DNA from: Candidatus Saccharimonadota bacterium
GTDB lineage: Bacteria > Patescibacteriota > Saccharimonadia > Saccharimonadales > Saccharimonadaceae
Direction of reading: 5' to 3'
Length of the DNA: 32,000 nucleotides
NCBI GenBank assembly: GCA_001897305.1
Contig: MKSO01000001.1
Coordinates: 180,001-212,000 of the forward strand
The position numbers were made by a program, and so were the translations under genes. The first letter of the stretch is position 1. Each line of letters begins with the position of its first letter. Under the pieces are notes generated by a model. It was not told where the DNA came from, ran no database searches, and saw nothing but the letters and a program-made list of their open reading frames with translations. This document shows, piece by piece, positions 1,939-29,048 of this stretch.

Positions 1939-1939
1939 T

Positions 1940-4900
1940 ATGAACCGCAAAGCCCTACTGCCAGTCTTCGTCTCGCTTGGTATTTTTGTTGTTATTTTTG
2001 GGGTTGTGGCGCTGTATCTTTGGAACGCAAGCCGGCAGGATGTAAAATCAACGGCCGACCAATCTGTCACTACAGTGAAGGGGCTTCAAGACCTTCAAGT
2101 TATTGACCAGCCTGTTTCACCAACGAAGCAAGTGATAGGTGGTGATTTAAAGGTAACGGGTAATGTCAGCATTATCGATGGTCTTTCAAGTTCATCACTA
2201 CAGCTTACACCGGTTACTAACCCAGCCGGCCTTCGTACCGGTCAGCTTTACACGAATACCGATAATAACCTGTACTACTACGACGGTAGGGTTTCATCGA
2301 ACATTTCAGGCGGTTTAGCGACTGCTCGAGTAGACATTAACCAACTTCAGCAAGAAACTGCTCAATTTCTGAACCGTCCAGAGGGTGTGCTCACACTACA
2401 GGGTCAGTCGGGTAATGTCGTACTGGCTGGTTCTGATGGAATTGCTATTTCTGGAACAACCATTACAAATAATGGCGTGCTTACTGTACAGGGTCGGGCT
2501 GGTAATGTTCAGTTCGTAAGCGGTAACGGCATCGATGTAACGGGAACAACCATTAATAATACAGGCGTCACAAGCTTGGGTGGTCAGAACGGCACTGTCG
2601 CTTTGGGCACTGGGCTCAGTATCAGCAACGGCACACTAGTGAACACAGGAATTACTCAACTTATCTCGGGTAGTTCCGATTTGATCGTTTCGAATGTAGG
2701 TGGCGGTGCCTACACAATTAGTTATGCCGGTTCCGGGGTGGGTGGTACGGTCGCTTTGGCACCAAATACATCCCAGGAAGATTCTAGTAATAATGCATCA
2801 ATCGCTTTTAACAAAACGGGTCTCGGCAACTTAATTCAAATTTCTACTGGTACTAATGCTTCGAATAAATTCGTCGTCGATCAGTCAGGTGCAATTATTA
2901 ACGGAAGCATTAACTTTAGCCAGGTAACAGGTGTGCCGAGTCTTGTTAATTCTATTGCGGGCCTTACGGGTACCGTAGGAGTTGGTGCTGGACTGGCTGT
3001 AAATGGTGGCCAGCTGGTTGCTACGACGGCTGTGAATAATCTTGTAGGAACTGCGAACCAAGTAAATGTATCGGGGAGCGGTACGCTTACTCTATCGTTG
3101 CCGCAAAGCATCGCGACGACATCTTCGCCGACTTTCGCCGGCTTGACGCTCACGAATGCACTAACTGTAGGGAACGGTGGTACTGGTGCATCGACTGCTG
3201 CGGGGGCTCGTACTAACCTAGGAGCGGCGGCAAGTGGTGTAAATAATGACATTACTTCGCTTACTGGTTTAACCACGGCGTTGTCGGTTGCCCAGGGTGG
3301 TATTGGTACGACGTCTCTTACTCAAAATGGTGTGCTTATTGGCAATGGCTCTGCCGCCGTGTCTACACTTAATGCGGCGAGTGCTAATCAGTGTCTTGTG
3401 TCTGGTGCGGGTGGCGTATTAAGCTTCCAAACCTGTCCGGGTGCAGGCAGCGTCACTAGCGTAAATGGTAAAAATGGTGCAGTGACGATAGCGGGCGTAG
3501 ACCCAACAAGTATTGATTCAACCGGTTCATCAATTGTTATTCGCGATGCCTCGTATACAACTAAGGGCTTAGCTTCATTTAATAGTACAAACTTCAGCGT
3601 ACTAAACGGAAGTGTTACTACTGCGCAAAATATTAATACAGGCGCTACTCCAACCTTTGCTGGCTTAAACCTCACTGCGGCATTAAGCACTGCTAACGGT
3701 GGAACGGGTCGTACGAGCTTTACGGCCAATTCGTTGCTCGTAGGCCAGGGCGGAGCTGCGCTTGGAACGGTTGGAACAACCATTGATGGGCAGTGTTTAG
3801 TGTCAGGAACTGGCGGGGTGCTTGGTTTTGCATCGTGTCCCGGTTCAAATGGCGTAGCTAGTTTGAACGGGCTTACAGGGGCGGTTAGCCTTAGCACAGT
3901 AACTGCTTCAAGCTTGTCGCAGACCGGGAATGTTATTACTGTTCGCGACGCAAGCGACACCATAAAGGGGCTTGCTGCATTTAATAGCAGCAACCTAGTC
4001 GTAACGAACGGGGTTGTAAATACTGCGCAAAATATTAATACGTCGGCTACGCCTACTTTCGCCGGACTTTCACTTGATACTGCGCTTGCGGTTACTAGTG
4101 GTGGTACTGGCCGTAATACGCTAACCGCTAATAGTCTTTTGATAGGAAATGGTACGGGCGCAGTGTCTATGTTAAGTGCGCCAACGGCCGGCTTGTGTCT
4201 TACTTCTGGCACTGGCGGGGTGTTGAGCTTCGTCACTTGTCCGGGTACTGCGGTTGTAAATACGCTTAACGGACAAAGTGGTGATATTACACTTACTGCT
4301 GCAGATCCGTCAAGTATTACTACGACCGGCGCAACTATCTCGATTCGTGACGCTTCGTATACAAATAAGGGCTTGGCTTCATTTAATGGCAGTAACTTCA
4401 GTGTTACAAATGGTGCTGTTAATACCATTCAGGATATCGCAACAACCGCAACGCCGACCTTTGAGGGCTTAACTCTTACCAGCGCTTTGGGTGTGACGAG
4501 TGGCGGTACTGGTGCAACGAATTTTGCGGCTAATAGCCTCCTTATTGGACAGGGGACTGCAGCGGTGAGTACATTAGGTACGTCGACGGCTGGTCAGTGT
4601 CTTATTTCTGGTACGGGTGGGTATCTATCGTTCTCGGCTTGCCCTGGAAGTAACGGCGTTGCCAGCCTTAATGGGCTGCTCGGAGCTTTGACGGTCAAGG
4701 GTGTGAGTGCCTCTAGCGTGCTTTCAACGGGTTCAACTATTACTATCGCTGATGCAACGGACACGGTAAAGGGCCTTGCCGCATTTAATAGCAGTAACCT
4801 AGTCGTAACAAACGGGGTTGTAAATACTGTTCAGGACATTTCAGTAAATGCGACACCAACTTTCGCCAGCCTTACGCTCTCTAGCCCGCTAGCTGTTAGT

Positions 4901-7900
4901 AGTGGCGGTACTGGTGCAAGTAGCTTTGCCGCAAACGCGGTACTTATCGGTAATGGTAGCTCTACGTTTGGTGCAGTTGCTGCTACGGCCGAAAACCAAT
5001 GTCTAATATCTGCAGCCGATGGCAGCTTAAGCTTTGTGACGTGTCCTGGTGCCGCCGGGGTAACCAGCTTGAATGGTCTTCAGGGCAGTCTTACGCTTAA
5101 CGCTGCTGACCCTAACAGTATTGCGAGCAGTGGTACGACCATTACTCTTCGTGATGCTACTAACTCTCGCAAGGGTCTTGCGTCATTCAATGCCGCGAAC
5201 TTCAGTGTTACCAGTGGTGCGGTAAACTTAGTTCAGGATATTGGCTCTGGCGCGACGCCTACTTTTGCAGGCCTAAGCCTAGGAAGCGCCTTGACGGTAG
5301 CAAATGGTGGTACTGGTGCAACCACAGCTGCTGACGCAAGGACAAACCTCGGGGCTGCGTCTAGTGGTGTTAACAACGACATCACCACACTTGGGTCGGT
5401 TACTTCGATTGCCTCTGGGTCTGGTCTAACAATAAATGCCACAAGCGGCACCCTCAGTCTGCAGGGTGCGGCAACGGTGCTTGCTCAAACTAACGGCACA
5501 AACACAACTCGGCTTGATTTTGCAAATCCAACAGCTGACGTAACGTATCGTCTACAAACTGCCGCCGCTGGTACGTATGAAGTATGTACGACCGCGGGTA
5601 ACTGTGTCGGTGTGGGCGGTGGCGTTACGACGACCGGTGGAACAATCGGCAAGCTTTCCCGTTTTGTCAGCGGCACTGCTATTGGCGACTCAATCATTAC
5701 GGATAATGGCTCAACGGTATCGATAGGGGGCGCCCTTAACGTTAATACTATTACGCCAACGGCGGCTGCTATTATTGGTGCGACTACCCAGTCGCTTACT
5801 CTGCAAGGTTCAACGACAAGTATTACAAGTACCGGCGCGGCTTCAACAAATACCCTCACGTTCGCAACTCCATCGGGCACGAACAAGACGATCACTATTC
5901 CAAACGCCAGCGGTACGGTTGCTATTTCAGCAAGTGGTCCATTAAGTCTTGACGCCAACGGTAACCTTTCGTGTGCCAGCTGTCTGACAAGTGGCGGCGG
6001 CGGTGGTGGTGCGACAGGTGTCTCAAGTGTTAATGGTATCACCGGTGCTGTTACCTTGGTGTCTAGTGACGCAAATTCACTGACGACGGCCGGTACTAGC
6101 ATTACTATTAACGATGCGACGGCAACAACTAAGGGTCTCGCTGCTTTTAATAGTAATAACTTGGTTGTTTCAAATGGCGTCGTAAACACCATCCAAGATA
6201 TTGGTACTGGTGCGACACCAACCTTTGCTAATATTAACCTTAGTTCGCCGTTGACAGTTGCGAATGGTGGTACGGGCCGTTCGAACTTGCCAAAGGGTCT
6301 CGTTATAGGCAACGGCACAGGTGCGGTCGATATCCTTGCTCCAACCGGTGCAAGTGAATGTTTGGCATCGGATTCAAGCAGTAACCTTGTGTTCGTAGCC
6401 TGCCCGGGTACGTCGGTTGTTAATTTCCTTAATGGGCTTAACGGTACGGTAACAATCGACACTGTATCGGCAAGTAGTCTTTCGACAAGTGGCAATAACA
6501 TTCGTATTCAAGACGCTACTTCGTCTATTAAGGGCTTGGCATCGTTCAACGCCTCAAACCTGACGGTGACAAATGGCAGCGTTAATACCGTTCAGGACAT
6601 TAGTACATCATCAACCCCATCATTTAACGGCCTTTCACTCGGTACAGCGCTAGGGGTTGCTAGTGGTGGTACGGGTTCAGCTACGGCTGCCGGTGCGCGC
6701 ACAAACCTGGGCGCGGCTGCTCGTGGTGCAAACAGCGACATTACGTCATTATCTGGCCTTACGACAGCTTTGTCGGTAGCCCAGGGTGGTACTGGTCAGT
6801 CTTCACTGACAGCAAACCGAGTGCTACTTGGTAACGGCACCTCTGGTATTGCAGTGAGTAACGCCGCAGGGGTTGGCCAATGTTTGGTAGGGAATGCAAG
6901 TGGTGCACCAAGTTTCCAAGCGTGCCCTGGCTCTGATGGCGTCCGTACCTTTAACAGCCTAAATGGGGATGTCACTCTTGATACTACATCGGCAAATAGC
7001 TTGGTAGTGAGCGGCAATAACATTCGCATTCAAGACGCAACCTCATCTATTAAGGGCTTGGCATCGTTTGACGGCACGAACCTTACTATTGTGAATGGTG
7101 CGGTTAATACGGCACAGAACATCACCACTAGTGCAACGCCAACCTTTGCTGGCTTGAACCTGACCACTGCCTTAGGTGTTGCGAGTGGTGGGACGGGCCG
7201 CTCAACACTTGCGACAAATGGTGTTGTTGTAGGTCAGGGTACAAGTGCCGTTACTACCGTCGGTACAAACACGGCGGGCCAGTGTCTTGTATCTGGCACT
7301 GGCGGGGCTTTGAGCTTTGCAAGCTGCCCTGGCTCTGGTGGTGTGGCAAGCCTCAATGGCTTGAACGGTGCTGTTACCATCGACACGGTGACTCCATCGA
7401 GTCTTTTGGTTAGTGGCAATAACATTCGCATTCAAGACGCAACTTCATCTATTAAAGGCTTGGCATCATTCAACACTGATAGTCTTACGGTTACAAATGG
7501 TAGCGTTTCAACTGTTCAAAGTATTAACACTACCGCAACGCCAACCTTTGCTGGTCTTACTCTGACAAGTCCGCTTGGCGTTGGCAGTGGCGGTACGGGC
7601 CGCTCGACACTTGCAGCGGGAAGCTTGCTTATAGGTAATGGCTCGGGCGCTATTTCTACACTTGGCACATCTGTAGCGGGTAAGTGTCTCGTCTCTGGTG
7701 CTAGTGGAACGCTTTCATTCCTCGACTGTCCAGGAACCGACGTTGTGAGTAGTTTGAACGGTGTGAGTGGCGCAGTTACGGTAACTGCTGTTGATCCAGC
7801 AAGCATCGACACTACAGGTAACACTATTACTGTTAAAGACGCTTCGTATACAACCAAAGGCCTGGCTTCGTTTAATGGTGGTAACTTTGTTGTTAGCAAT

Positions 7901-10900
7901 GGGGCGGTTAATACAATTCAGAACATCGCTACAACGTCGAGCCCAACTTTTGCCGGCCTAACGCTTTCAAGTGCGCTAGGGGTAGCAAATGGCGGTACTG
8001 GGGCTGGAAGTTTTGCAACTAACGGTATTCTCGTTGGACAAGGAACATCCGCTGTAACGACAGTCAGCACTACTACGGCCAACCAGTGTCTTGTTACGGG
8101 AACGGGTGGTGTTCTAACATTTGCAAGTTGTCCTGGTTCGGGCGGCGTCAGTAGCTTTAATGGCCTTACAGGTGCGGTAAATGTTGCGACGACAACCGCA
8201 AGCAGCCTCCTTACAAGTGGCAATACTGTCACTATTCGCGACGCAAGCGATACTATTAAGGGTCTCGCTTCCTTCAATTCAACCAACCTTACCGTCACAA
8301 GTGGCGTCGTAAATACGGTTCAAGATATAAGCACTGCATCTACGCCAACCTTTGCCGGCCTTACCCTAGGTAACGCGCTGAGTGTTGCTAACGGTGGTAC
8401 GGGTCAAACTACCCTCACTGCTAACCGCGTGCTTCTCGGTAATGGTACGTCTGGTGTGGCAGTGAGCAACGCCGCAGGGGCCGGACTTTGTCTTATTGGG
8501 AATGCGACCGGGGCACCAAGCTTCCAATCTTGTCCAATTGGTGGGAATATCTCATCTGGCACCTCTCAGACTGCTGGTGTTGTGGCGATGTTCGATAGTA
8601 CCGCAAACCAAATTACCGACTCAATCATCTCGCAGTCTGGTTCGGTTGTCTCTGTTGGCGGACAACTGAGTGCTACGACACTAAGTGGCAACGGTGCGGC
8701 GATCACTAACCTTAACGCTTCTAATATTGCCACCGGTACTGTTGCAAACGCTCGTCTTAGCGCCAATGTAACACTTCAGGGCAATAGCTTTAACGGTAAC
8801 AGCCAGTTGCTTAAGCTTGATAGCAGCGGTGCAACTACCCAAAACGGCCTTTGTCTTATGAGTACTGGCTCTGGTACGGGTACTGCTTTCCAGGCGTGCC
8901 CAGGTTCAAACGTAGCCGTAGGCGCAAACACTTCGCTGTCTAACCTTTCGAATGTTGCCATTAATGACATGCTTCTTCCGGGCGCGAGCAATTCTATCGA
9001 CATTGGTAGTACCACCTTGGCATTCCGCAACCTTTACTTGGCTGGTGCAGTAAGTGCGGCGGGCGCCATCAACGGCCTCACGCTTACTTCAAACTCGCTA
9101 CAGAGTGCTGGTGCTCTCAACCTTAGTGCGGGTGGAACAAACCAAGCGGTTACAATTGCTGGCAGCGGTAGTGGTGGAGTGACAATTAACCCAGGTACGG
9201 GGAGTATTACGCTCTCGGGCGTAACCTGTAATACCTCTGCTAACGGTGGAAAGCTTACCACTAATGCGTCGGGTATCTTGGGCTGTGCCGATGATATTGG
9301 CGGCGTCTCGGTTGTGGGTACTATTGACTCGCAGACGGCCAGCGCCAACGGTGCGGTTATTAATGGTAATACTATCTATTTGCAGACGGCGAGTTCAACG
9401 GCAACCGGGCTTGTAAGTACGGCTGCCCAAACGTTCGCTGGTAACAAAACATTTGCCGGAGCTACAACACTGCAGGGCGCAACAACAATGAGTGGATCGG
9501 TGACGATTGGCAGTCCATCGATGGGTGTTCTATACACCGATACGAGCGGTACTGTTCAAAAGGCGTATACATCAGGTGCAACGGTAGGTCAGTGCCTAGC
9601 TTATACTGCAACGAATACTCTTGGCTTCCAGAGCTGTGGCGGTGGCGGTGGGGGTGGAAATCCATTCCTTCAAGGCGGTAATGCCTTCAATGCAACAGCA
9701 ACACTCGGTGTGACAGATAACCAGGCGATAAATATTATTCAAAATAATCAAAATCGTATTGCCATGCCAAATGACGGCAACATCATCATAACGCCTATGA
9801 CTAACAAATTCGTTTTCATTAATACAACCGCCTCTGATAGTGATGCTGATTTGATTGTAAATGGTCGCGTTAAGTCATTGACTGGCTTTAAGGTGGGTAA
9901 CGTAAGCGGAATATCTATTGCGCAGTGTAGCGGATACATTCAGAATGCAGTTGTGAGTGGCGGTATTATTACCAATGGTAACTGTTCGAGCGGGGGTTCA
10001 GCGGGTCAGGCTCTTGTACAAGGTGGTAACGCCTTTAATGGGACGCTTACCATGGGAACGACAGACAACTTTGGTGTTAATATCGTAAAACAAGGCACCA
10101 CCATGATCGGTATAAGCCAGGACGGCAACATCGACTTCTCGCCAAGCGTTAATAAGTGGGTCCGTGTCGGCACTACTGATACTGATAGTACGTCACAATT
10201 TATCGTAGGTGGGCGTATCAAGTCGGGCACTGGTTTCAGGGTCGGTAACAATACGGGCATAGATCTTACATGTCAAAATGGTAACCAGACCTTGGGCGCG
10301 GTTCGTATTGCCGGTGGTATTATCTACCAAGCGCAGTGTGCCACCAACAACTCTGACCTTGCCGAGAATTACGCCTCACCACAGCAACTCGCTCCAGCCG
10401 AGATTGTCATGGCTGCTGGTACTTCTGCAACAACAGTGGTTCGCGCCACCGGAGAAGGTGCTCGCGAAAAACTTATGGGCGTTGTTTCGACTAACCCAGG
10501 CCAGACATTAGGTACCGAACAAGTACCAAACGGGTATCCAATTGCCCTAACCGGACGTGTTCCTGTGAAGGTAAACGGCGAGGGTGGCCCTATTGCAGTA
10601 GGTGACAAGGTGACTATCTCGAGTGTTGAAGGTGTCGGTAAGAAAGCTACAACCCCAGGTATGATCGTCGGTACCGCAGTTGAATCATTTGACGGCAACG
10701 GCCAAGGCTCTATTGAGGTCTTTGTAAACCTTATGTACTGGAGCCCTGTGGATGGTAATAACCTGCAGGCTCAGACAGGCACCTTTGGTTCACTAAATGT
10801 ATCTGGTAACACTACTTTGAACACCCTAACAGTTACTGGTGTAGCTACATTCCAGGCAAATATTGTCGTGAACGGACACATTATTACTGGCGGTGGTGCG

Positions 10901-11203
10901 CCAAACTACAGTGTCGGTGCATCGGCCGGCGCGGGTGCCCAGGTTGTCATTGACGGTAACGATACAGCGGGTACTATTAAAGTAACTACTGGTTCAGGTG
11001 CCAATGCAGGCAGCCTTGCGGATCTCGTCTTTAGTCACGCGTATGGTAAGGCACCAAAGGTGCTTATCACCGGCCAAGATGACGCAAGTGTAAACGCTCG
11101 TGTCTACCCATCGGGTAAATCAAGTAGCGGCTTCTCACTCGGTACATCTCAGACGTTAGCACCAAATACCACCTACTCATTTGACTACTTTATTGTTCAA
11201 TAG
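1940..11203 (+). CDS. Giant membrane-anchored surface protein (3,087 aa) with tail-fibre-like repeat architecture; putative adhesin or host-contact fibre
   Basis: An uninterrupted 9.26-kb ORF. ATG at 1940 follows GAGGA at a 9-nt spacing and lies 1 nt after the upstream stop. The N-terminal TM anchor is LLPVFVSLGIFVVIFGVVALYLW. About 11 repeat units of 134 aa each carry a C-x13-C-P-G loop. The motif ANGGTG..TAA.ARTNLGAA.SG.N.DIT occurs three times (nt ~3206, ~5336, ~6696). A G.G..ITNLNASNIATGTV.NARL motif and two QGGNAFN...LG.TDN modules are present. The protein is T/S/G/N/A-rich and low in charge. Confidence 0.9.
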   Translation: MNRKALLPVFVSLGIFVVIFGVVALYLWNASRQDVKSTADQSVTTVKGLQDLQVIDQPVSPTKQVIGGDLKVTGNVSIIDGLSSSSLQLTPVTNPAGLRTGQLYTNTDNNLYYYDGRVSSNISGGLATARVDINQLQQETAQFLNRPEGVLTLQGQSGNVVLAGSDGIAISGTTITNNGVLTVQGRAGNVQFVSGNGIDVTGTTINNTGVTSLGGQNGTVALGTGLSISNGTLVNTGITQLISGSSDLIVSNVGGGAYTISYAGSGVGGTVALAPNTSQEDSSNNASIAFNKTGLGNLIQISTGTNASNKFVVDQSGAIINGSINFSQVTGVPSLVNSIAGLTGTVGVGAGLAVNGGQLVATTAVNNLVGTANQVNVSGSGTLTLSLPQSIATTSSPTFAGLTLTNALTVGNGGTGASTAAGARTNLGAAASGVNNDITSLTGLTTALSVAQGGIGTTSLTQNGVLIGNGSAAVSTLNAASANQCLVSGAGGVLSFQTCPGAGSVTSVNGKNGAVTIAGVDPTSIDSTGSSIVIRDASYTTKGLASFNSTNFSVLNGSVTTAQNINTGATPTFAGLNLTAALSTANGGTGRTSFTANSLLVGQGGAALGTVGTTIDGQCLVSGTGGVLGFASCPGSNGVASLNGLTGAVSLSTVTASSLSQTGNVITVRDASDTIKGLAAFNSSNLVVTNGVVNTAQNINTSATPTFAGLSLDTALAVTSGGTGRNTLTANSLLIGNGTGAVSMLSAPTAGLCLTSGTGGVLSFVTCPGTAVVNTLNGQSGDITLTAADPSSITTTGATISIRDASYTNKGLASFNGSNFSVTNGAVNTIQDIATTATPTFEGLTLTSALGVTSGGTGATNFAANSLLIGQGTAAVSTLGTSTAGQCLISGTGGYLSFSACPGSNGVASLNGLLGALTVKGVSASSVLSTGSTITIADATDTVKGLAAFNSSNLVVTNGVVNTVQDISVNATPTFASLTLSSPLAVSSGGTGASSFAANAVLIGNGSSTFGAVAATAENQCLISAADGSLSFVTCPGAAGVTSLNGLQGSLTLNAADPNSIASSGTTITLRDATNSRKGLASFNAANFSVTSGAVNLVQDIGSGATPTFAGLSLGSALTVANGGTGATTAADARTNLGAASSGVNNDITTLGSVTSIASGSGLTINATSGTLSLQGAATVLAQTNGTNTTRLDFANPTADVTYRLQTAAAGTYEVCTTAGNCVGVGGGVTTTGGTIGKLSRFVSGTAIGDSIITDNGSTVSIGGALNVNTITPTAAAIIGATTQSLTLQGSTTSITSTGAASTNTLTFATPSGTNKTITIPNASGTVAISASGPLSLDANGNLSCASCLTSGGGGGGATGVSSVNGITGAVTLVSSDANSLTTAGTSITINDATATTKGLAAFNSNNLVVSNGVVNTIQDIGTGATPTFANINLSSPLTVANGGTGRSNLPKGLVIGNGTGAVDILAPTGASECLASDSSSNLVFVACPGTSVVNFLNGLNGTVTIDTVSASSLSTSGNNIRIQDATSSIKGLASFNASNLTVTNGSVNTVQDISTSSTPSFNGLSLGTALGVASGGTGSATAAGARTNLGAAARGANSDITSLSGLTTALSVAQGGTGQSSLTANRVLLGNGTSGIAVSNAAGVGQCLVGNASGAPSFQACPGSDGVRTFNSLNGDVTLDTTSANSLVVSGNNIRIQDATSSIKGLASFDGTNLTIVNGAVNTAQNITTSATPTFAGLNLTTALGVASGGTGRSTLATNGVVVGQGTSAVTTVGTNTAGQCLVSGTGGALSFASCPGSGGVASLNGLNGAVTIDTVTPSSLLVSGNNIRIQDATSSIKGLASFNTDSLTVTNGSVSTVQSINTTATPTFAGLTLTSPLGVGSGGTGRSTLAAGSLLIGNGSGAISTLGTSVAGKCLVSGASGTLSFLDCPGTDVVSSLNGVSGAVTVTAVDPASIDTTGNTITVKDASYTTKGLASFNGGNFVVSNGAVNTIQNIATTSSPTFAGLTLSSALGVANGGTGAGSFATNGILVGQGTSAVTTVSTTTANQCLVTGTGGVLTFASCPGSGGVSSFNGLTGAVNVATTTASSLLTSGNTVTIRDASDTIKGLASFNSTNLTVTSGVVNTVQDISTASTPTFAGLTLGNALSVANGGTGQTTLTANRVLLGNGTSGVAVSNAAGAGLCLIGNATGAPSFQSCPIGGNISSGTSQTAGVVAMFDSTANQITDSIISQSGSVVSVGGQLSATTLSGNGAAITNLNASNIATGTVANARLSANVTLQGNSFNGNSQLLKLDSSGATTQNGLCLMSTGSGTGTAFQACPGSNVAVGANTSLSNLSNVAINDMLLPGASNSIDIGSTTLAFRNLYLAGAVSAAGAINGLTLTSNSLQSAGALNLSAGGTNQAVTIAGSGSGGVTINPGTGSITLSGVTCNTSANGGKLTTNASGILGCADDIGGVSVVGTIDSQTASANGAVINGNTIYLQTASSTATGLVSTAAQTFAGNKTFAGATTLQGATTMSGSVTIGSPSMGVLYTDTSGTVQKAYTSGATVGQCLAYTATNTLGFQSCGGGGGGGNPFLQGGNAFNATATLGVTDNQAINIIQNNQNRIAMPNDGNIIITPMTNKFVFINTTASDSDADLIVNGRVKSLTGFKVGNVSGISIAQCSGYIQNAVVSGGIITNGNCSSGGSAGQALVQGGNAFNGTLTMGTTDNFGVNIVKQGTTMIGISQDGNIDFSPSVNKWVRVGTTDTDSTSQFIVGGRIKSGTGFRVGNNTGIDLTCQNGNQTLGAVRIAGGIIYQAQCATNNSDLAENYASPQQLAPAEIVMAAGTSATTVVRATGEGAREKLMGVVSTNPGQTLGTEQVPNGYPIALTGRVPVKVNGEGGPIAVGDKVTISSVEGVGKKATTPGMIVGTAVESFDGNGQGSIEVFVNLMYWSPVDGNNLQAQTGTFGSLNVSGNTTLNTLTVTGVATFQANIVVNGHIITGGGAPNYSVGASAGAGAQVVIDGNDTAGTIKVTTGSGANAGSLADLVFSHAYGKAPKVLITGQDDASVNARVYPSGKSSSGFSLGTSQTLAPNTTYSFDYFIVQ
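3120..5290 (+). repeat. Coding tandem repeat block 1 of the giant gene: 5 units with an exact 402-nt (134-aa) period
   Basis: The first Cys codon of the C-x13-CPG loop recurs at 3392, 3794, 4196, 4598 and 5000, exactly 402 nt apart each time. Units are diverged (not identical) at both amino-acid and DNA level. Block edges are approximate. Confidence 0.9.
6020..8535 (+). repeat. Coding tandem repeat block 2 of the giant gene: about 6 units (one of 522 nt, then a 402-nt period)
   Basis: Cys codons fall at 6359, 6881, 7283, 7685, 8087 and 8489. A ~55-nt stretch (ggcaataacattcg.attcaagacgc...ggcttggcatc) recurs at 6491, 7013 and 7415 with only a few substitutions. Block edges are approximate. 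Confidence 0.9.
9660..10360 (+). repeat. Two tandem ~116-aa modules (QGGNAFN..LG.TDN..I....G.....DGNI......NK.V...T.......F/L IV.GR.KS.TGF.VGN) near the C-terminus of the giant protein
   Basis: caaggcggtaatgcc at 9671 and caaggtggtaacgcc at 10019 are 348 nt apart. The two translated modules align along their whole length. Confidence 0.8.
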
Positions 11204-14934: not shown

Positions 14935-15721
14935 AATAATAACATCCGTAAATAACAGCTTCCTCAGGGTGTTTCGCCTGAACAAGTTTTGGTAGGGGAA
15001 TGTGCGGAGGAAGTTTTTCTTTTAAGATGCCCTTTAAATCCTCTTCGTATTGCTTGAAGTACGTACCAATACTGCCGCCTATAATGATAATATCCGGTTG
15101 GATAACAGGTATAACAGCCAAGAAGCCGCGACTAATACGGTCGGCGATTTTGCGCCAAATTCGCTTGCTTTTAATGTCCCTGGCATAGGTTCGGTAGGTA
15201 TTGTAGATAGCCTTGCCTGATGCAAAGCTCTCCCATTCACGCACCACGCCGTCGTACTCAACTAATGAACGGCCGGCTTCGCTATGGCGCAGGCCGGGGT
15301 CGATGCGACCGTTGGTTATAACGCCACTGCCGATTCCGGTACTGACGGTCACGTAAAGGCTAGAGAGCGGCATTGGAGAGCGTTGACGGGTTTCCGCTAG
15401 GCCAGCGAGGTTGGCATCGTTCTCGATATAGAGCGGGGCATTGCCTAGTACGCCTTGCAAGGCACTAGCCACATCGAAGTTCTTCCATTTTAAATTATTA
15501 CACCAGACCGCAACGCCGTTCTTGATAATGCCGGGCATAGCGATAACGATAGCGTCAACCTGTTTACCCCCGAATAGGGTGGTGAGGTGAGTGGTGAGAG
15601 TTTGGATGTAGTGTTCCTTTTGCGGAGGAGTAGGAAACTTAAACAGCGTCGTAACCTTACCGGCTTCGTCAAAGCCTGCAATTAACGTTTTCGTTCCCCC
15701 TGTATCCACCGCGACAATCAT
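14900..15721 (-). CDS. ROK-family sugar kinase (glucokinase-like)
   Basis: MIVAVDTGGTKT (phosphate-1 motif), ENDANLAGLAE, and VSTGIGSGVI. Length is 273 aa. The canonical Cys-rich zinc motif of ROK proteins is not evident. Confidence 0.82.
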   Translation of the reverse strand: MIVAVDTGGTKTLIAGFDEAGKVTTLFKFPTPPQKEHYIQTLTTHLTTLFGGKQVDAIVIAMPGIIKNGVAVWCNNLKWKNFDVASALQGVLGNAPLYIENDANLAGLAETRQRSPMPLSSLYVTVSTGIGSGVITNGRIDPGLRHSEAGRSLVEYDGVVREWESFASGKAIYNTYRTYARDIKSKRIWRKIADRISRGFLAVIPVIQPDIIIIGGSIGTYFKQYEEDLKGILKEKLPPHIPLPKLVQAKHPEEAVIYGCYYYALDVLADSQA

Positions 15722-15727
15722 GCCTCT

Positions 15728-15736
15728 AGTGTAGCA
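15728..15736 (-). promoter_or_regulatory. Extended -10 (TGCTACACT on the minus strand) 6 nt upstream of the ROK ATG; leaderless-type promoter
   Basis: The minus strand reads TGC-TACACT-agaggc-ATG. There is no room for a functional Shine-Dalgarno sequence. Confidence 0.5.
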
Positions 15737-15750
15737 TGAACAATGCAGAT

Positions 15751-15901
15751 TTAGCTCCTAATTTGGTGGCAAGAGGATGGTCTTATATAAGCGACACATT
15801 CCGCAGCCTGAGTTGAGATGGGCGTAGAGACCCCATCGAAACCCAGCGCGAGGACCGTTCGCGTTGTAAGACCATCCTCTTGCCACCAAATTAGGAGTTA
15901 A
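15751..15901. repeat. Long-hairpin element, copy A (shorter, divergent): 31-bp perfect inverted arms around an 81-nt interior
   Basis: The left arm ctcctaatttggtggcaagaggatggtctta (15755-15785) is the exact reverse complement of 15867-15897. Pairing extends 3 bp further after one G/T mismatch. The interior contains TTCCGCAG, ATCGAAACC and GCGAGGAC, which also occur in copies B and C but in a different order. Confidence 0.7.
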
Positions 15902-15965
15902 CCGCTTACGGTTGCATTCTATCTGATAACCTCGCATACTAGGCCCATAACGAGGAGAGCGTGGT

Positions 15966-19553: not shown

Positions 19554-19629
19554 TAATCGTTGAAACCCGGTGCGAAGCCAGTCTGAAAATGAATGATGGT
19601 TAGGTGTATTTCGTATATTCTTACAAATA

Positions 19630-23913: not shown

Positions 23914-24492
23914 CTATTCGCTCCACAGAACGGGGCTGTCTTTGATGTGCTCGTCATAATTAAGCGGCACTAATTCGCCCTTCTCGTTGAGAGTGTAGAA
24001 AGCGCCGGTACTATCTTTAATATGGTCAATAAATACGATGCCGTTGGTGTGGTCGATTTCGTGTTGAATAACGCGTGCTAAAAAGCCATCGGCTTTAAAA
24101 CGTACTTCTTGGCCATCAATGTTGAGAGCGCGAACCCGGATTTTACTATAGCGGGGAACTTTACCGTAAATGTCTTTTACACTTAGGCAGCCTTCGTAGT
24201 CTTCGACTAATTCGCCTTCATACTTAACGATTTCTGGGTTAATAAGAGCGGTAAAATCATTATTTGCTTTATCGTCAAAGTCACTGCGAACAATAACGAC
24301 ACGCGACAGGCGGTCCACTTGAACAGCCGCCAAGGCAGCACTAATTTCGTGTGGGCGAGAGGCCTCCCAGTCAATTGCAGCCGCGGTCATATCCTTGATG
24401 AGAGCGAGTGTCGCGTCATCAATACTTTGTATTTTGTCGGATTTTGTACGCAAATGCGGGTTGGGCAGGGTGATAATATCGTCTTTAGTCAT
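23914..24492 (-). CDS. def: Peptide deformylase
   Basis: All three signature motifs are present: ..ALAAVQV (G.AA.Q-like), EGCLS and QHEIDH. Confidence 0.94.
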   Translation of the reverse strand: MTKDDIITLPNPHLRTKSDKIQSIDDATLALIKDMTAAAIDWEASRPHEISAALAAVQVDRLSRVVIVRSDFDDKANNDFTALINPEIVKYEGELVEDYEGCLSVKDIYGKVPRYSKIRVRALNIDGQEVRFKADGFLARVIQHEIDHTNGIVFIDHIKDSTGAFYTLNEKGELVPLNYDEHIKDSPVLWSE

Positions 24493-24499
24493 TGGCCAT

Positions 24500-24508
24500 A
24501 GTATATCA
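24500..24508 (-). promoter_or_regulatory. Extended -10 (TGATATACT on the minus strand) 7 nt upstream of the def ATG; leaderless-type promoter
   Basis: The minus strand reads TGA-TATACT-atggcca-ATG(def). Confidence 0.5.
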
Positions 24509-24519
24509 GAGGTAGCGGT

Positions 24520-24709
24520 GAGGCGGAAGAGGCGGCCGGAGCTCGAGCATAGCGCTTTGATGAAACCTAGCTATCGAACGGCGACTTCTTGGCGGAGCGA
24601 GGACTGTCTGAGCGCAGCGAGTTCCGCAGATCCCCAAGAAGGAGCCGAGATACAGGTAAGGCTTGAATCAACCGCGCTATGCTCGAGCTCCGGCCGCCTC
24701 TTCCGCCTC
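24520..24709 (+). repeat. Long-hairpin element, copy B: 36-bp perfect inverted arms, 118-nt structured interior and a 34-nt conserved core (core in + orientation)
   Basis: The arm gaggcggaagaggcggccggagctcgagcatagcgc (24520-24555) is the exact reverse complement of 24674-24709. Inner pairings are cttcttgg(24585-92)/ccaagaag(24634-41), cggc(24579-82)/gccg(24644-47) and tatc(24572-75)/gata(24649-52). The core agcgaggactgtctgagcgcagcgagttccgcag (24596-24629) matches the reverse complement of 28267-28300 at 34/34 positions. Confidence 0.85.
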
Positions 24710-24718
24710 TGCTACAAT
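24710..24718 (+). promoter_or_regulatory. Extended -10 (TGCTACAAT) 6 nt upstream of the ATG at 24725; leaderless-type promoter
   Basis: TGC-TACAAT-aggtat-ATG. It begins at the nucleotide immediately after the right arm of element B. Confidence 0.55.
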
Positions 24719-24724
24719 AGGTAT

Positions 24725-25273
24725 ATGAAGCAATTGACTAAAGACCAGTTTGATAGCTTGCTGCAAACGGCGGTGATTCGGCCGAAAATTCGTCGCGAGG
24801 TTCGATTCGCGAACGTTGCTCAGTTGGATGAGGCTACTTGGCTGCATACCGAGGTTCTTGCTGTTCCCGATAGATCTGGAAACAAAGGAGTGCTTTTGTT
24901 GAAAGCAACCGAGAATGCCTTATATGTGGCTAGTTATGAACTAAAGAGGGGGATGACCAGCAGCACAGGCAAAGCTCAGCCGATCATTTGTGATTTCTGT
25001 CGCACGTGGCAAACGGGCACTCGAGCGGGCAGTATTACGCTTGATAAGCCCGGCCGCGCCAACGGTTCGGTGACGTTTTTATGTTGCGCTGACCTCGCCT
25101 GTAGCCAGCATGTTCGAAGCCTGACTTCGGCGGCTCGTACGTCACGATCTCAGCTTCGCGAGGACATGACAAATGAAGAGCGGATAGCCCGGCTTGAACA
25201 ACGTATCAACGAGCTCGCCCAGGTTGTAGAGTTAGTAGCGTATACTGGAGAGTATGCGAATACGGAAAAGTAA
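24725..25273 (+). CDS. FBP (FusB-like, EF-G-binding) domain protein with a C-terminal treble-clef zinc finger (182 aa)
   Basis: ICDFCRTWQ...GSITLDKPGRANGSVTFLCCADLACSQHVR matches my recollection of the FBP_C pattern (CxxC ... G..iCaDLaCs..vR). The start is set at ATG 24725, because the upstream 110 codons of the 292-aa ORF run through the palindromic element B. Confidence 0.68.
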   Translation: MKQLTKDQFDSLLQTAVIRPKIRREVRFANVAQLDEATWLHTEVLAVPDRSGNKGVLLLKATENALYVASYELKRGMTSSTGKAQPIICDFCRTWQTGTRAGSITLDKPGRANGSVTFLCCADLACSQHVRSLTSAARTSRSQLREDMTNEERIARLEQRINELAQVVELVAYTGEYANTEK

Positions 25274-25286
25274 GGAAAGGTTTGCT

Positions 25287-26225
25287 ATGCCACCATCACC
25301 AGTATCAACACCATCTTCACGAAAAAAACCACTTGTCATCGGACTAATTGTCGCCGGCGCGCTTCTTCTTATCGCGGCGATTGTCATTCCAATCGTTCAA
25401 GTTAACCGGGCGAATCAAGCCGCATCTACCTACCGTAGTGACGTAAAAGATACGGTGTCGCAATTACTTGCCTCGAATACGCCTAAGCGTCGTGTCGAGT
25501 TGGTTGAAAAGCCACCAGTGCTGCAGCCTATTTGGTTAGGTGAGCAACTGTCCGGAAAGTATCGAGATGCCCAAGCGCTTGAGGCTCGTTACAAGAAATT
25601 AACAGATGACAACATCTCGGTATTTAAATTTATTTACGCGTTTGAAACTCTTAGTGGAAACGAAAAAGATAGCTTCTTCCCACGTTTAACAGCGACACTG
25701 CAAACAGAAGTGCCGCCATTTAGCTACCGTGTTGACACCGAAGCACAAAAGGCCGGTTCTAAAGCCTATGTCGATGCTGCCAATAAGCAAGCGCAGGCCT
25801 ACACGGCACTCGCTGACGAGATGAAGGGGTACGTTCTTCCTGATGCAGCCAAAGAGCCGCAACAACGGATGTACACTGCCCTCATGGCTATGGCGAACGA
25901 GAAAACTGCTCAGGCTACAAAGCAAAAAGACTACACTGAGAAAGCCGAAAAAGGCGAGATTGATGAGAATGGCATGGAGAAGCAGGCTACTCAAAAATCG
26001 TACACAGATAATTTACTTGATACGCTTGATGCATTTAGCTCACAGCTGTACTCATTAAGTACGTCGGTGAGTGGAGATATTTCCCTAGATGCATATCCAG
26101 AGGTTCGTGCTGCCACTAAGGCGCTCGTAGAACCATTTACGCGCACCGATGTTCAGCAGTGGATTGTCGACACAACTCAAAAGACGCAAAATGATTACAC
26201 GGCATTTTCAGATTCGTTGAAGTAA
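25287..26225 (+). CDS. Membrane-anchored hypothetical protein (312 aa), helical and charged ectodomain
   Basis: AAGGAAAGG Shine-Dalgarno sequence 7 nt before ATG 25287. One TM helix (LVIGLIVAGALLLIAAIVIPIV). The rest is K/E/Q/A-rich, with no recognised motif. Confidence 0.65.
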   Translation: MPPSPVSTPSSRKKPLVIGLIVAGALLLIAAIVIPIVQVNRANQAASTYRSDVKDTVSQLLASNTPKRRVELVEKPPVLQPIWLGEQLSGKYRDAQALEARYKKLTDDNISVFKFIYAFETLSGNEKDSFFPRLTATLQTEVPPFSYRVDTEAQKAGSKAYVDAANKQAQAYTALADEMKGYVLPDAAKEPQQRMYTALMAMANEKTAQATKQKDYTEKAEKGEIDENGMEKQATQKSYTDNLLDTLDAFSSQLYSLSTSVSGDISLDAYPEVRAATKALVEPFTRTDVQQWIVDTTQKTQNDYTAFSDSLK

Positions 26226-26228
26226 TAG

Positions 26229-28169
26229 TTAAAGAAGACTTGTGGGGTCCAATTCACTTTGCCAGTGCGTTGGCGGGACAGCGTCAAGTGCTTGGACGAG
26301 CACATCTCTTTTAGGGCTTTTGAGCGTCAGCTGCCAACGATACGTATCGTGTTGTCGTTCATAAAAGGCCGGCGTCGGCCCCAGTACCTCGACGCCTCGA
26401 GGCAGGCGAGACCGGAGTGTACGGGAAAGTTGTTGGGCATTACGAACAGCGGCTGCTTCGCTTTTGTATACGTCGGTAAGTTGGAGTAAATAGCGAAAAG
26501 GCGGAAAGCCTGCCTTTTGACGTTCGGAAAGCGCATATGAGTAGAAGCCCTCATAATCTTGCTTGACGCCATATTGGATGACGGGGTGAGTCGGTTGGTA
26601 GGACTGTACCACCACACTTGTGGCCCGTTCGTCACGCCCCACGCGACCTACAACCTGGGCAATTAACTGAAAGGCGCGTTCGCTGGCGGCATAGTCGGGG
26701 AGGGCTAACCCACTGTCTGCCTGGATAATACCAACCGTACGTAACTTGGGGAGATCAAGACCTTTAGCGACAACCTGGGTACCGATAGCTATATCGATAG
26801 TACCGTTGTAAAGGTCGGTGTAGCGTTCGTTGACCGTTTCGTGAGTGGCGTTATCACCGTCGAAGCGGGCAATTTTTGCTTTAGGAAATAGGCGTTGTAA
26901 TTCGCTTTCGATGAGCTTTGTGCCAATACCTTTGTGAATAATCTGTGAAGCATGGCAAACGGGGCATGAAGTAGGCACTTTTGTTTTGTAGTCACAAATA
27001 TGACAGCTGAGACTGAAAGAGTCGGTATGGAGTACTAACGGCACAAAACAGCGGGGGCATTCGGCGGTCCAGCCACAGTTTTCGCACAGCGTAGTACTGG
27101 CACTGCCGCGACGGTTATGAAAAAGAAGAGTTTGCTGGCCAGATGCAATATTGTGTTCGATTTCGCTAATAAGTGTGTCCGATAGAAAGCGATGATGTTT
27201 GAATGCTTCGCGTTTTTTCATATCAACGACATGCACAGTGGTAGGAGTGGCATTGCTACGAGCTGGCTTTGGGAGTGTGACGATAGGGGAGTTGGTGGTC
27301 TCTGCGATGTAGCGATCGGTGATCAGCGGGGTCGCGCTTCCTAATACTACCCGGGCCTTCGCAGCTCTACCCAGTACCCCGGCGGCCCTGAGGGCAGAGT
27401 AGCGCGGAGCCTGCTCTTGCTTATAGCTTGGTTCATGAGCTTCGTCTACTAGTATGGCGCCAAGTTGGTAAGCTGGCATAAATAGGGCGGAGCGAGGCCC
27501 GATAATAACAGTTGGCTCGCTAGCATGGAGTACTTTTTGCCACGCAAGGTGTCGCTCGGCTTCTGTCATATGAGAATGAGTTACGATCGTATGATTGAAC
27601 TCATGAATAAACTCGTCGACAACTTGGCTGGTGAGTCCAATTTCTGGCACAAGAATAATAACCGACTTGCCGTCGGCGATGGTGCGGCGAGTTATTTCTT
27701 TGTACACTTCGGTTTTTCCAGACCCTGTTACCCCTTGAAGTAGGGTGGTGCCAGATGGTTGAGCCATAATTTTTTTCACAGCTTCAGTCTGATCATCATT
27801 GAGTACAATAGTTGTTCGATTACGGGTTGAGACATGCGGTTGGACTTCTTTGCTGCGTCGCTTTTTTGTCAGTCCGCGGGGCAGGACAGTCTGGAGTACG
27901 GTTGCAAGCGGTGTGTGATAATAGTCAGCTAGCCAGAGCGAAAGCTCAACCAGTGACTGGGGAAGGGCCGTTGTCTCGATGACTCCATCAATCGGTTTCG
28001 TTTCGTAGGCTGGTTTCGAAACAGGCTTTATAACAAGCCCTGTAAGTTGTTGCTTGCCAACCGGGATTAATACCAGGTAACCAACAGATAATTGCTGATT
28101 ACTGTGATATGTAAAGGTATTCGCGTTGCTGCGAACAATCTTAGTTGGGGCAACCTCATAAAACCACAT
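26229..28169 (-). CDS. priA: Primosomal protein N' (replication-restart helicase PriA)
   Basis: Walker A GVTGSGKTEVY, the DEAH box LVDEAHE, the internal Cys-rich zinc region CENCGW..CPRC...CHIC...CPVC, and C-terminal helicase motifs (QVVGRVGR). Confidence 0.95.
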   Translation of the reverse strand: MWFYEVAPTKIVRSNANTFTYHSNQQLSVGYLVLIPVGKQQLTGLVIKPVSKPAYETKPIDGVIETTALPQSLVELSLWLADYYHTPLATVLQTVLPRGLTKKRRSKEVQPHVSTRNRTTIVLNDDQTEAVKKIMAQPSGTTLLQGVTGSGKTEVYKEITRRTIADGKSVIILVPEIGLTSQVVDEFIHEFNHTIVTHSHMTEAERHLAWQKVLHASEPTVIIGPRSALFMPAYQLGAILVDEAHEPSYKQEQAPRYSALRAAGVLGRAAKARVVLGSATPLITDRYIAETTNSPIVTLPKPARSNATPTTVHVVDMKKREAFKHHRFLSDTLISEIEHNIASGQQTLLFHNRRGSASTTLCENCGWTAECPRCFVPLVLHTDSFSLSCHICDYKTKVPTSCPVCHASQIIHKGIGTKLIESELQRLFPKAKIARFDGDNATHETVNERYTDLYNGTIDIAIGTQVVAKGLDLPKLRTVGIIQADSGLALPDYAASERAFQLIAQVVGRVGRDERATSVVVQSYQPTHPVIQYGVKQDYEGFYSYALSERQKAGFPPFRYLLQLTDVYKSEAAAVRNAQQLSRTLRSRLPRGVEVLGPTPAFYERQHDTYRWQLTLKSPKRDVLVQALDAVPPTHWQSELDPTSLL

Positions 28170-28175
28170 ATATTT

Positions 28176-28184
28176 AGTATAGCA
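28176..28184 (-). promoter_or_regulatory. Extended -10 (TGCTATACT on the minus strand) 6 nt upstream of the priA ATG; leaderless-type promoter
   Basis: The minus strand reads TGC-TATACT-aaatat-ATG(priA). It is separated from the left arm of element C by 1 nt. Confidence 0.55.
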
Positions 28185-28185
28185 G

Positions 28186-28376
28186 TGAGCGTAAGGAGGC
28201 GGAGCGAGACTTTTTATATGCAGTTACCTCAAGCCTTGAGTGGCTGCGTGTTTTCTTCTTGAGACGCTGCGGAACTCGCTGCGCTCAGACAGTCCTCGCT
28301 TCGTCAGGAAGAAAACGCTTGCCACTCAGGTTTCGATAAAGCATATAAAAAGTCTCGCTCCGCCTCCTTACGCTCA
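28186..28376 (-). repeat. Long-hairpin element, copy C: 36-bp perfect inverted arms, 119-nt structured interior, with the same 34-nt core in the opposite orientation to copy B
   Basis: The arm tgagcgtaaggaggcggagcgagactttttatatgc (28186-28221) is the exact reverse complement of 28341-28376. Inner pairings are gagtggc(28238-44)/gccactc(28321-27), gttttcttc(28250-58)/gaagaaaac(28308-16) and gacg(28263-66)/cgtc(28302-05). The core lies at 28267-28300. The junction motifs TTTATCGAAACCT and AAGGCTTGA are shared with copy B. Confidence 0.85.
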
Positions 28377-28385
28377 TGCTACAAT
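28377..28385 (+). promoter_or_regulatory. Extended -10 (TGCTACAAT) 6 nt upstream of the ATG at 28392; leaderless-type promoter
   Basis: TGC-TACAAT-aaccat-ATG. It begins at the nucleotide immediately after the right arm of element C. Confidence 0.55.
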
Positions 28386-28391
28386 AACCAT

Positions 28392-29048
28392 ATGTATTTT
28401 GAGAGCCGAATTCAGGCTGGCCAGCAGTTAGCCCAGCAGCTTTTTGAGAAATATCGCTACGAAAACTGCGCCATTATTGCTTTAAGTGATGGCGGTGTTT
28501 TGGTAGGGGAGCAAATTGCCACGCAGCTTCACTGTATTTTAACGATGCTTTTAGTAGAAGATATTCCGGTGCCGGGTGAAAGTGTTAGCTTTGGCGGCGT
28601 GTCCCAAACGGGGCAATTCACGTATAACAGCGAGTTTTCTAGTGGGGAAATTGATGAGTATGCAACTGAGTTTCACGGCTACCTAGAAGAGCAAAAACGT
28701 GAGGCTTTCCAGCGCATCAATCGGCTTATTGGTGATGGCGGCTTAATTGATCGCGATTTGCTACGTGACCATACAATTATATTAGTGAACGATGGCTTCG
28801 CTGATACGACCGTTCTGGACGTAGCGCTCGATTTCCTTAAGCCGATACGTATTAATAGGCTTATTATTGCCGCGCCAGTTGCATCCGAGCAAGCGGTCGA
28901 CCGTTTGCACGTAGTGGCTGACGAGTTGCACATTCTTGATGTAAAGACGAATTTTTTCGATACCGACCATTACTATACCGACAATACAATTCCTACGCAC
29001 GAAGAGACGATCGATAAAATTAATAAGATTATCCTGAATTGGCGTTGA
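28392..29048 (+). CDS. Phosphoribosyltransferase-family protein (218 aa)
   Basis: The N-terminal F..R..AG..LA..L pattern and the hydrophobic-strand-plus-acidic loop TIILVNDGFADTTV resemble the PRPP-binding motif of type I PRTases, although the loop is degenerate (no TG). Confidence 0.7.
   Translation: MYFESRIQAGQQLAQQLFEKYRYENCAIIALSDGGVLVGEQIATQLHCILTMLLVEDIPVPGESVSFGGVSQTGQFTYNSEFSSGEIDEYATEFHGYLEEQKREAFQRINRLIGDGGLIDRDLLRDHTIILVNDGFADTTVLDVALDFLKPIRINRLIIAAPVASEQAVDRLHVVADELHILDVKTNFFDTDHYYTDNTIPTHEETIDKINKIILNWR

Follow-up and report, generated by a model that had tools for sequence, protein, structure and literature searches.

Palindromic repeats probably inserted between older back-to-back leaderless-type promoters in a Candidatus Saccharimonadota genome

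A 32,000-nt stretch of the Candidatus Saccharimonadota contig MKSO01000001.1 (assembly GCA_001897305.1, positions 180,001 to 212,000; the whole stretch is called the window below) carries three long hairpins, copies A, B and C, between divergent genes, and copy C fills the intergenic region at 28167-28394 between priA and a phosphoribosyltransferase (PRTase) gene. Comparison with the priA-PRTase/def locus of eleven relatives, whose PRTases are 79-92% identical to that of the window, suggests that these hairpins are probably (at about 0.6 by our own estimate) non-autonomous palindromic repeats that were inserted between older back-to-back leaderless promoters, and that they neither supply these promoters nor are needed by them. 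What a preliminary description had taken for a palindromic promoter module would then split into ordinary back-to-back leaderless promoters plus an inserted repeat, and would call for expression data before being annotated as a regulatory unit. The genes priA, PRTase, def, FBP_C and ROK were identified by Pfam.

Copy C and the same sites in related genomes

The layout first proposed for copy C, CAT-N6-box-g-arm...arm-box-N6-ATG, was borne out by direct reading. On the minus strand, the priA open reading frame (ORF; 26229-28169), which carries PriA domains and an N-terminus, MWFYE, that is kept in relatives, begins at 28167-28169 (CAT on the plus strand), and its extended -10 box TGCTATACT (AGTATAGCA on the plus strand; 28176-28184) is separated from the ATG by atattt (6 nt). 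A single g lies between this box and the left arm of copy C, a 36-nt perfect inverted repeat (28186-28221) that pairs with the right arm (28341-28376) at 36/36 positions; the whole hairpin measures 191 nt (28186-28376). The plus-strand PRTase box TGCTACAAT (28377-28385) touches the right arm and is followed by aaccat (6 nt) and the ATG at 28392-28394. Between the arms lies a 119-nt unit of the type termed family 1 (28222-28340, conserved strand minus), which has a covariation-supported structure and is 76% complementary to the interior of copy B. Its apex GCGAGGACTGTCTGAGCGCAGCGAGTTCCGCAG (28267-28299, minus strand) is a 33-mer identical in copy B, with a GCGCAGC mini-hairpin motif at 28278-28284. 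The RNA fold of 28170-28391 reached -127 kcal/mol (z = -14.4), and 0/200 shuffles were as good.

The symmetry does not end at the arms. Beyond them, 14/18 positions from the -10 box to the start codon are mirror-symmetric between the two sides, and the boxes themselves are mirror images (TAGCA...TGCTA), so that the symmetry seems to continue to the start codons; the claim that the whole intergenic region is one large palindrome holds at copy C. Within this symmetry the two boxes are unlike each other (TATACT vs TACAAT), and each is identical or close to its counterpart at that site in relatives, not to its mirror partner. No direct repeats were found at the flanks of copies A, B and C, those of copy C being mirror images instead.

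In all eleven relatives the start codons and the -10 boxes of priA and PRTase are conserved, and the DNA between the boxes varies. The priA box reads AGTATAGCA in most of them, empty sites included, and AGTATATCA, AGTATAACA or ATTATATCA in others, and the sequence TGCTA(C/G)(A/T)AT at the PRTase start is conserved in 12 genomes. The spacer holds a family-1 element in the window and L140 (loci outside the window are given L numbers), and an element of a second type, family 2, in L131/L132, L133, L136 and L139. It holds a small imperfect hairpin in L129/L130, and non-palindromic DNA only in L135 (27 nt) and L134 (34 nt). In L138 (9918-9977; 27 bp, 6-nt loop) and L127 (9933-9980; 16 bp, 16-nt loop) it is occupied by core-less perfect palindromes, which may be deletion products or pre-insertion targets; the arms of the L127 palindrome are similar to those of copy C. 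Upstream of def, family 1 is found in the window, L127, L131 and L132, and family 2 in L133 and L136. The site is empty in L129, L134, L135 and L138, and also, despite a divergent FBP_C gene, in L139 (boxes 27 nt apart) and L140. The def box reads AGTATATCA in most relatives, with the variants AGTATACCA and AGTATAGCA, and L138 has a different, more distant box.

The empty sites (priA-PRTase in L134 and L135, def-FBP_C in L139 and L140) keep both boxes, about 21-34 nt apart. Because the boxes persist at empty sites and beside different inserts, the promoters appear to be ancestral and independent of the hairpins, and the hairpins to be insertions; the presence of two families in one 30-nt spacer would imply at least two independent insertions. 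The proposal of a mobile cassette with outward-firing promoters does not fit sites that have both boxes and no hairpin. An obligatory shared regulatory module is not supported either: what fills this spacer differs among the genomes compared (a family-1 or a family-2 element, a core-less palindrome, or no insert), and the interior does not keep one orientation. At the def site the interior lies in the plus orientation in copy B of the window and in L132 and in the minus orientation in L127 and L131, and the reverse complement of the L127 interior aligns with that of copy B from end to end (84%). An inverted interior is the expected product of recombination between inverted arms.

The histories of element and host are decoupled. 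The elements of L131 and L132 are flipped and 83% identical, though their def genes are 95% identical, and the locus of these two genomes is a recombination mosaic, with nucleotide identities of 99.6% for priA, 98.8% for PRTase, 95% for def, 93% for FBP_C, 80% for fmt and 79% for RecJ. The junction between def and priA (window 24493-26228; L127-L140) is a hotspot of gene gain and loss: it contains nothing, a hairpin only, FBP_C, FBP_C with a 323-aa/171-aa gene, or a DUF218 gene.

Leaderless-type promoters and the surroundings of copies A and B

The window was searched for the leaderless-type pattern, TGnTAnnnT followed after 4-9 nt by a start codon and an ORF of at least 60 aa, with shuffled sequence as control, and 10 instances were found against 1.0 expected. 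In six real genes the box stands 6-7 nt before the start and no Shine-Dalgarno (SD) sequence is present, namely in the gene starting at 11888, ROK, def, FBP_C, priA and PRTase, and the remaining window genes use leaders with an SD sequence. Since these six starts include that at 11888, which has no hairpin nearby, leaderless-type promoters appear to be habitual in this genome rather than tied to the hairpins. The -10 hexamer TAnnnT with its upstream TGn ends 6 nt (priA, PRTase, FBP_C, ROK) or 7 nt (def) before the start. GGAG, GAGG and AGGA are all absent from the 6-7 nt before the def, FBP_C, priA and PRTase starts, and at ROK a GAGG at -5 is too near the start to serve as an SD sequence. As the preliminary description had stated, the elements occupy the -35 and upstream positions of these promoters, and no -35 hexamer was found there; the TGn extension and the -35-independence of the promoters are read from the sequence. 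These genes presumably make leaderless mRNAs, a view strengthened by the retention of both box and spacing in related genomes. No internal promoter or terminator was found in or around the window copies.

Copy B (24520-24709, plus strand) has 36/36 complementary arms (24520-24555 and 24674-24709), a 118-nt family-1 interior and its apex at 24597-24629. Its layout is that of copy C, as described. Outward boxes are present on both sides, at N7 and N6, and the box on the right, that of FBP_C (TGCTACAAT, 24710-24718, plus strand), touches the arm and is followed by aggtat (6 nt) and the ATG at 24725. The left box, TGATATACT of the minus-strand def gene (AGTATATCA on the plus strand; 24500-24508), lies 11 nt off the arm, with tggccat between it and the start codon (24490-24492, CAT on the plus strand). 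At both copies B and C, the box 6-7 nt from an ATG without an SD sequence proved to be as described, and it is conserved in relatives.

Copy A (15751-15901) is a family-2 hairpin with arms at 15751-15785 and 15867-15901 (34/35) and an 81-nt interior, and its family is also present in L127, L131-L133, L136 and L139. The minus-strand ROK box TGCTACACT (15728-15736), 14 nt from the arm, was correctly placed 6 nt from the start (15719-15721). A mirror-image layout fails here, as the right-hand gene, an LPXTG gene, has an ordinary plus-strand promoter (TTGCAT-17-CATACT, 15912-15940) and a leader with the SD sequence AGGAG before its ATG at 15966; with a leaderless-type box on one side only, copy A is not flanked symmetrically. 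The three window hairpins all fold far better than shuffles (z = -11 to -14), and as DNA they fold nearly equally on either strand, copies B and C at -73 to -76 kcal/mol. A decayed 3' half of a family-2 element is found at 19556-19600 (plus strand) between the infB stop codon and its terminator, and at the same place 3' of infB the closest relative, L127, has a full family-2 copy (2170-2270).

Structure and distribution of the elements

The family-1 interior, 118-119 nt in five copies, is an imperfect hairpin with conserved asymmetric internal loops. Compensatory changes were found in 28/43 of its pairs, and 87% of cells were paired against 67% in shuffles, with 0/500 shuffles reaching the observed values. 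The family-2 interior, 64-81 nt in most copies, has some helix pieces in common with family 1. The family-1 apex, GCGA-GGACTGTCTGAGCGCAGCGAG-TTCCGCAG, sits at the tip of long hairpins. Among 25 variant cores its centre N is C in 12, A in 7, T in 4 and G in 2, and the flanking TGAGC and AGCGAG are invariant, which makes the N of GNA the sole freely varying apex base; one copy, L132, has the apex variant GCGAAAGC. GCGNAGC mini-hairpins are exceptionally stable as DNA (PMC13037366; d(GCGCAGC) in PMC3201870). The apex shows their defining features, a GC/GC stem that closes a G-N-A loop in which N varies freely and G and A do not, and the stability ascribed to it is that given in these papers.

The outer arms measure 29-36 bp, are perfectly Watson-Crick paired and contain zero G-T pairs. 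Those of copies A, B and C are unrelated to one another, and even copies of a single genome have arms of their own: L086 and L112, two loci of one metagenome-assembled genome (MAG), have a common inner unit at 92% and different outer arms. BLAST of the arms against all sequence gathered for the analysis gave no second copies. In six copies from a Desulfobacterales MAG (L033, L044, L045, L053, L068, L093), which are 89% identical near the apex, a stem block of about 18 nt differs from copy to copy and is mirrored each time in the partner arm of the same copy. In L131/L132 the left arm holds sequence that empty genomes have upstream of def in unpaired form (p = 0.004-0.017), suggesting that the palindrome took in local DNA, at least there. 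A phage-derived, spacer-like origin of the arms was tried and rejected, the three arm sequences giving 0 matches each in IMG/VR. Likewise, no register of the apex fitted a K-turn, a tyrosine-recombinase core site or a relaxase nic site.

Placement was counted over 48 kb of the source genome, comprising the window, its left extension (L137) and its right extension (L124). Of 40 gene junctions, 34 are tandem, 3 convergent and 3 divergent. The convergent gene pairs at window 22885/22889 and 26225/26229 are only 3 nt apart, and there is almost no free DNA at convergent junctions. In other Saccharibacteria, family members lie at convergent junctions (L112, L120, L138) and at tandem ones (L018, L086), the copies of L133 and L127 lie at tandem junctions or in a 3' region, and L110 has a family-1 copy inside a long ORF call. 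Across phyla, crude ORF calls allowed 58 loci to be classified as 30 tandem, 22 convergent and 6 divergent. An exclusive association with promoters is therefore not upheld: the association with divergent promoters is real in the source genome and its close relatives, and is not a property of the whole family. Orientation relative to genes showed no bias across phyla (13 vs 17), and relative to GC skew no clear one (41 vs 62). Two other features of the source genome were noted. The window has a 3090-aa ORF (1931-11203) made of tandem repeat units of about 402 nt (134 aa), in at least 11 copies at 60-75% identity. In L137 (1042-4321) the 23S rRNA match is 3280 nt long where the model has 2925 nt, and this points to an insertion or an intron within that gene.

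The central 21-mer of the 33-nt apex, scanned against one genome per species, matched at least 120 loci. They come from Saccharibacteria, Nitrospirales, Desulfobacterales, several orders of gamma- and betaproteobacteria, Lachnospiraceae, Bacteroidota and Spirochaetota, and complete isolate genomes are among them. Every listed match is the tip of a long hairpin specific to its genome, often multi-copy and at contig ends. In BLAST searches of plasmids and phages, real unannotated copies of the apex were found only in Ralstonia megaplasmids and an Ilyobacter replicon; weak Acinetobacter matches inside a coding sequence were taken as chance. A scan of IMG/VR viral contigs for the apex gave 0 matches. 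A metagenome scan with a Saccharibacteria-specific 40-mer, a probe that was too specific, returned only the window's own sequence among the matches listed. Within 2.5 kb of the 120 listed loci no recurrent neighbouring protein and no RAYT-like gene was found, the clusters obtained being spurious ORFs across the repeat.

In many copies from Proteobacteria and Nitrospirales, and in copies from Bacteroidota and Fusobacteriota, two small hairpins, ..CTTTTCTTTTGGTTACTTTTCTTTGG-loop-CAAAGAAAAGTAAC and then TCGCC-N4-GGCGA, form an additional 3' tail (L002, L008, L011, L019, L095, L103, L121, L122 and others). This conserved tail produces recurrent spurious ORFs. In three Nitrospirales loci (L035, L043, L079) the tail hairpin is broken by nested short repeats, CCTGTCCTGAGCG(N)AGC..GAAGTCGAAGG, which look like a related loop motif (GAGC-N-GCGA/GTCGA). 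The Pseudomonadales MAG MT5bin.1 (L013, L015, L036, L088, L097, L114) has a subfamily of high copy number at which the assembly breaks off, at many contig ends; the palindrome of L013 exceeds 300 nt and its outer part contains outward-facing TGTTATAAT.

The covariance models of Rfam 15, run at gathering and E-value thresholds, found no family in the window, only noise (E = 1.6) at copy C, only tRNAs in 17 related loci and none in one proteobacterial tail-type copy, and a tRNA/tmRNA scan found none. Literature searches by sequence string (apex, loop variants and tail) gave nothing relevant, those by keyword yielded general background alone, and PMC2267715 does not cover the genomes of this analysis. 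The hairpin repeat is apparently undescribed.

Mechanism, alternatives and known systems

In the reading that we prefer, the ancestral state would have been a pair of back-to-back, -35-independent extended -10 promoters (TGnTAnnnT), 6-7 nt from the ATG and with boxes about 27-34 nt apart, into whose spacer non-coding palindromic repeats were then inserted. These elements would be non-autonomous DNA, mobile or recombinogenic, and would act in the form of a single-stranded hairpin. Template-switch correction turns quasipalindromes into perfect ones (PMC7202029), and intramolecular switching of this kind may keep the arms perfect and, in at least one case, may have extended them into local flanking DNA. 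The arms, with perfect Watson-Crick pairing, no G-T pairs and near-equal fold energy on both strands, do look shaped at the DNA level. Extension would halt at the -10 boxes, which are under selection, and this would account for arms that touch the boxes and for an intergenic region that reads as one palindrome; recombination between the arms would flip the interior. The elements may persist here because a very compact genome offers no untranscribed DNA other than this spacer, and because promoters with an extended -10 box can do without a -35 element. As a likely side effect, the promoters would have been moved 130-190 bp apart with cruciform-prone DNA put between them.

Several observations weigh against this reading. 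No transposase was found within 2.5 kb of the 120 listed loci, no target-site duplication at the window copies and no conserved terminal repeat, and mobility is accordingly deduced only from presence/absence and copy number. The three full elements fill exactly the 3/3 divergent junctions of the 48 kb, which would happen by chance in 1 of 9880 placements (~1e-4). Passive tolerance does not obviously predict such full occupancy, and relatives use convergent sites; with such occupancy, a targeting or regulatory role may exist. Some hairpin is present in the priA-PRTase spacer of 10/12 genomes compared. The def-site elements of the window and L127 are 84% (interior) and 72% (arms) identical where flanking 4-fold sites are saturated at 34%, which suggests constraint or a history separate from that of the host. 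The flank-capture test at the priA-PRTase site was not significant after multiple tests. Finally, isolated arm mismatches on the core strand across phyla are G-T in 103 cases vs A-C in 43, counts from copies that are not independent; this excess hints at one folded strand as the selected form, RNA or single-stranded DNA alike.

The alternative that survives best, although we consider it unlikely, is that the hairpin is a promoter module of the host, either a cruciform that forms under negative supercoiling and serves as supercoil sink or insulator, or a spacer that eases RNA polymerase crowding at boxes about 30 bp apart. In the twin-domain model, transcription drives supercoiling between divergent promoters, and a cruciform, insulator or crowding-relief effect would be physically plausible. 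Such a module would suit the occupancy of all three divergent junctions among the 40, the hairpins in 10 of the 12 priA-PRTase spacers, core-less perfect palindromes included, and the greater conservation of the element than of synonymous sites. It would also suit the like folding of both DNA strands (about -75 kcal/mol) and the perfect Watson-Crick arms, which a cruciform requires. However, L134, L135, L139 and L140 have the same promoters at empty sites, the two families are interchangeable and flip in orientation, the same families occupy convergent, tandem and 3'-region sites, and an invariant asymmetric apex and internal loops are superfluous for a cruciform.

We give a still smaller chance to a single-stranded DNA signal, in which a GNA-nucleated hairpin would be recognised in trans by an enzyme, such as one of HUH, tyrosine-recombinase or primase type, in an attC-like or ssi-like manner, and would promote gene gain and loss. 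The mini-hairpin motif is indeed strand-specific with a free N, and such motifs occur at phage G4 and ssiA priming sites (PMC13037366). The apex is invariant across phyla, G-T exceeds A-C on the core strand, and at the def-priA junction, where gene content varies, the hairpin is often at the def-proximal end. On the other hand, no enzyme gene is associated with the 120 listed loci, the elements have no consistent orientation relative to GC skew or genes, FBP_C occurs without a hairpin in L139 and L140, the arm ends as read show no attC R/L box consensus, and the G-T counts are not independent between copies.

That the hairpin is transcribed and acts as RNA, as a structured non-coding RNA gene or a cis-acting RNA element, is improbable to a somewhat greater degree. 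RNA prefers GNRA or UNCG tetraloops. The strong covariation, the conserved asymmetric internal loops, the G-U-type bias on one strand across phyla and the very negative fold z-scores would all be expected of RNA, but the window copies have no promoter or terminator in or around them, and their flanking -10 boxes point outward, which places them in untranscribed DNA. Orientation flips at orthologous sites and is unbiased relative to genes, the outer arms contain zero G-U pairs, no Rfam family matches, and the commonest loop is a GNA triloop, which was characterised in DNA (PMC13037366, PMC3201870). As for a mobile cassette with its own outward -10 boxes and Correia-like promoter creation, the contact of TGCTACAAT with the arm in both B and C and the outward TGTTATAAT inside the palindrome of the distant Pseudomonadales MAG family speak for it, but it is scarcely credible given the same boxes at the same distances at empty sites and beside unrelated inserts, the different boxes of copy C (TATACT vs TACAAT), each following its site in relatives, and the lack of such boxes at copy A and at convergent-site copies.

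Beyond the preferred reading of inserted palindromic repeats, we put forward, as a speculation with low odds, that they may represent an undescribed cross-phylum class of hairpins that act as single strands. Its members would have an invariant recognition apex capped by a GNA mini-hairpin and copy-specific self-complementary stem blocks arising by flank capture or an unknown diversification or targeting process. In Saccharibacteria they would home to the supercoiled spacer between back-to-back promoters, as cruciform-forming spacers and marks of gene gain/loss hotspots. The findings bear on where palindromes come from, on why they last in streamlined genomes and on their interplay with transcription-driven supercoiling there. 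One and the same 21-33-nt apex occurs in Saccharibacteria, Proteobacteria, Nitrospirota, Bacteroidota, Firmicutes and Spirochaetota. In one compact genome the elements show a striking preference for the gap between divergent promoters, and two families appear to have reached the same 30-nt spacer independently.

In Correia elements the 26-bp terminal inverted repeats are conserved, a TA target is duplicated and promoter boxes belong to the element itself, and Siddique et al. in 2011 reportedly treated Correia/NEMIS as transposable elements of the miniature inverted-repeat type (MITEs) that affect neighbouring promoters. The present elements resemble these Neisseria repeats as small, non-coding, multi-copy intergenic long hairpins, often beside promoters and present or absent between relatives, and to this extent they are MITE-like. 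They differ in that the apex and not the ends is conserved, so that terminal inverted repeats of the MITE kind are missing, in that arms vary per copy and no target-site duplication is seen, and in that the promoters pre-exist. The promoters themselves agree with leaderless-mRNA promoters of Actinobacteria and Deinococcus, where the -10 box lies about 6-7 nt upstream of the start codon (PMC3160421, PMC3898074, PMC4007540): box distance, ATG, lack of an SD sequence and conservation among relatives all correspond, the start sites here being predicted from sequence.

REP/BIME/REPIN/ERIC sequences are likewise extragenic, palindromic and non-coding, with proposed links to supercoiling and single-stranded hairpins, and the present elements too are mostly at tandem and convergent junctions across phyla. 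REPs are species-specific sequences of 20-40 nt, headed by GTAG or CGTC, and owe their mobility to RAYT (PMC3733652, PMC3116915). In contrast, the hairpins described here measure 130-330 nt and combine a cross-phylum invariant apex with copy-specific arms, and the sole GTAG present is the -10 box TGCTAC read on the opposite strand. Integron attC sites share with them an imperfect palindrome, conservation of structure over sequence, activity as a folded single strand (in attC) and an association with gene gain and loss. In attC sites the R and L boxes of the outer ends are conserved and the centre is variable, whereas the reverse holds here. The arm ends of A, B and C, read directly, contain no attC GTTRRRY, and the gene maps show no integrase and no cassette array; moreover, the hairpin lies 5' of genes, and FBP_C also occurs without it.

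The closest match to the apex is provided by the GCGNAGC/GCGNNAGC mini-hairpins at the single-strand initiation sites of phage G4 and ssiA (PMC13037366), as it holds the exact motif; those are single functional sites of phage or plasmid origins, and here the motif caps a 130-330-nt chromosomal repeat known from sequence. The elements thus belong to a known kind, the palindromic extragenic repeat, and are unusual in their cross-phylum invariant apex, their preference for promoter spacers and their copy-specific perfect arms; stems that differ per copy and yet are perfectly self-complementary are matched in no known repeat family compared.

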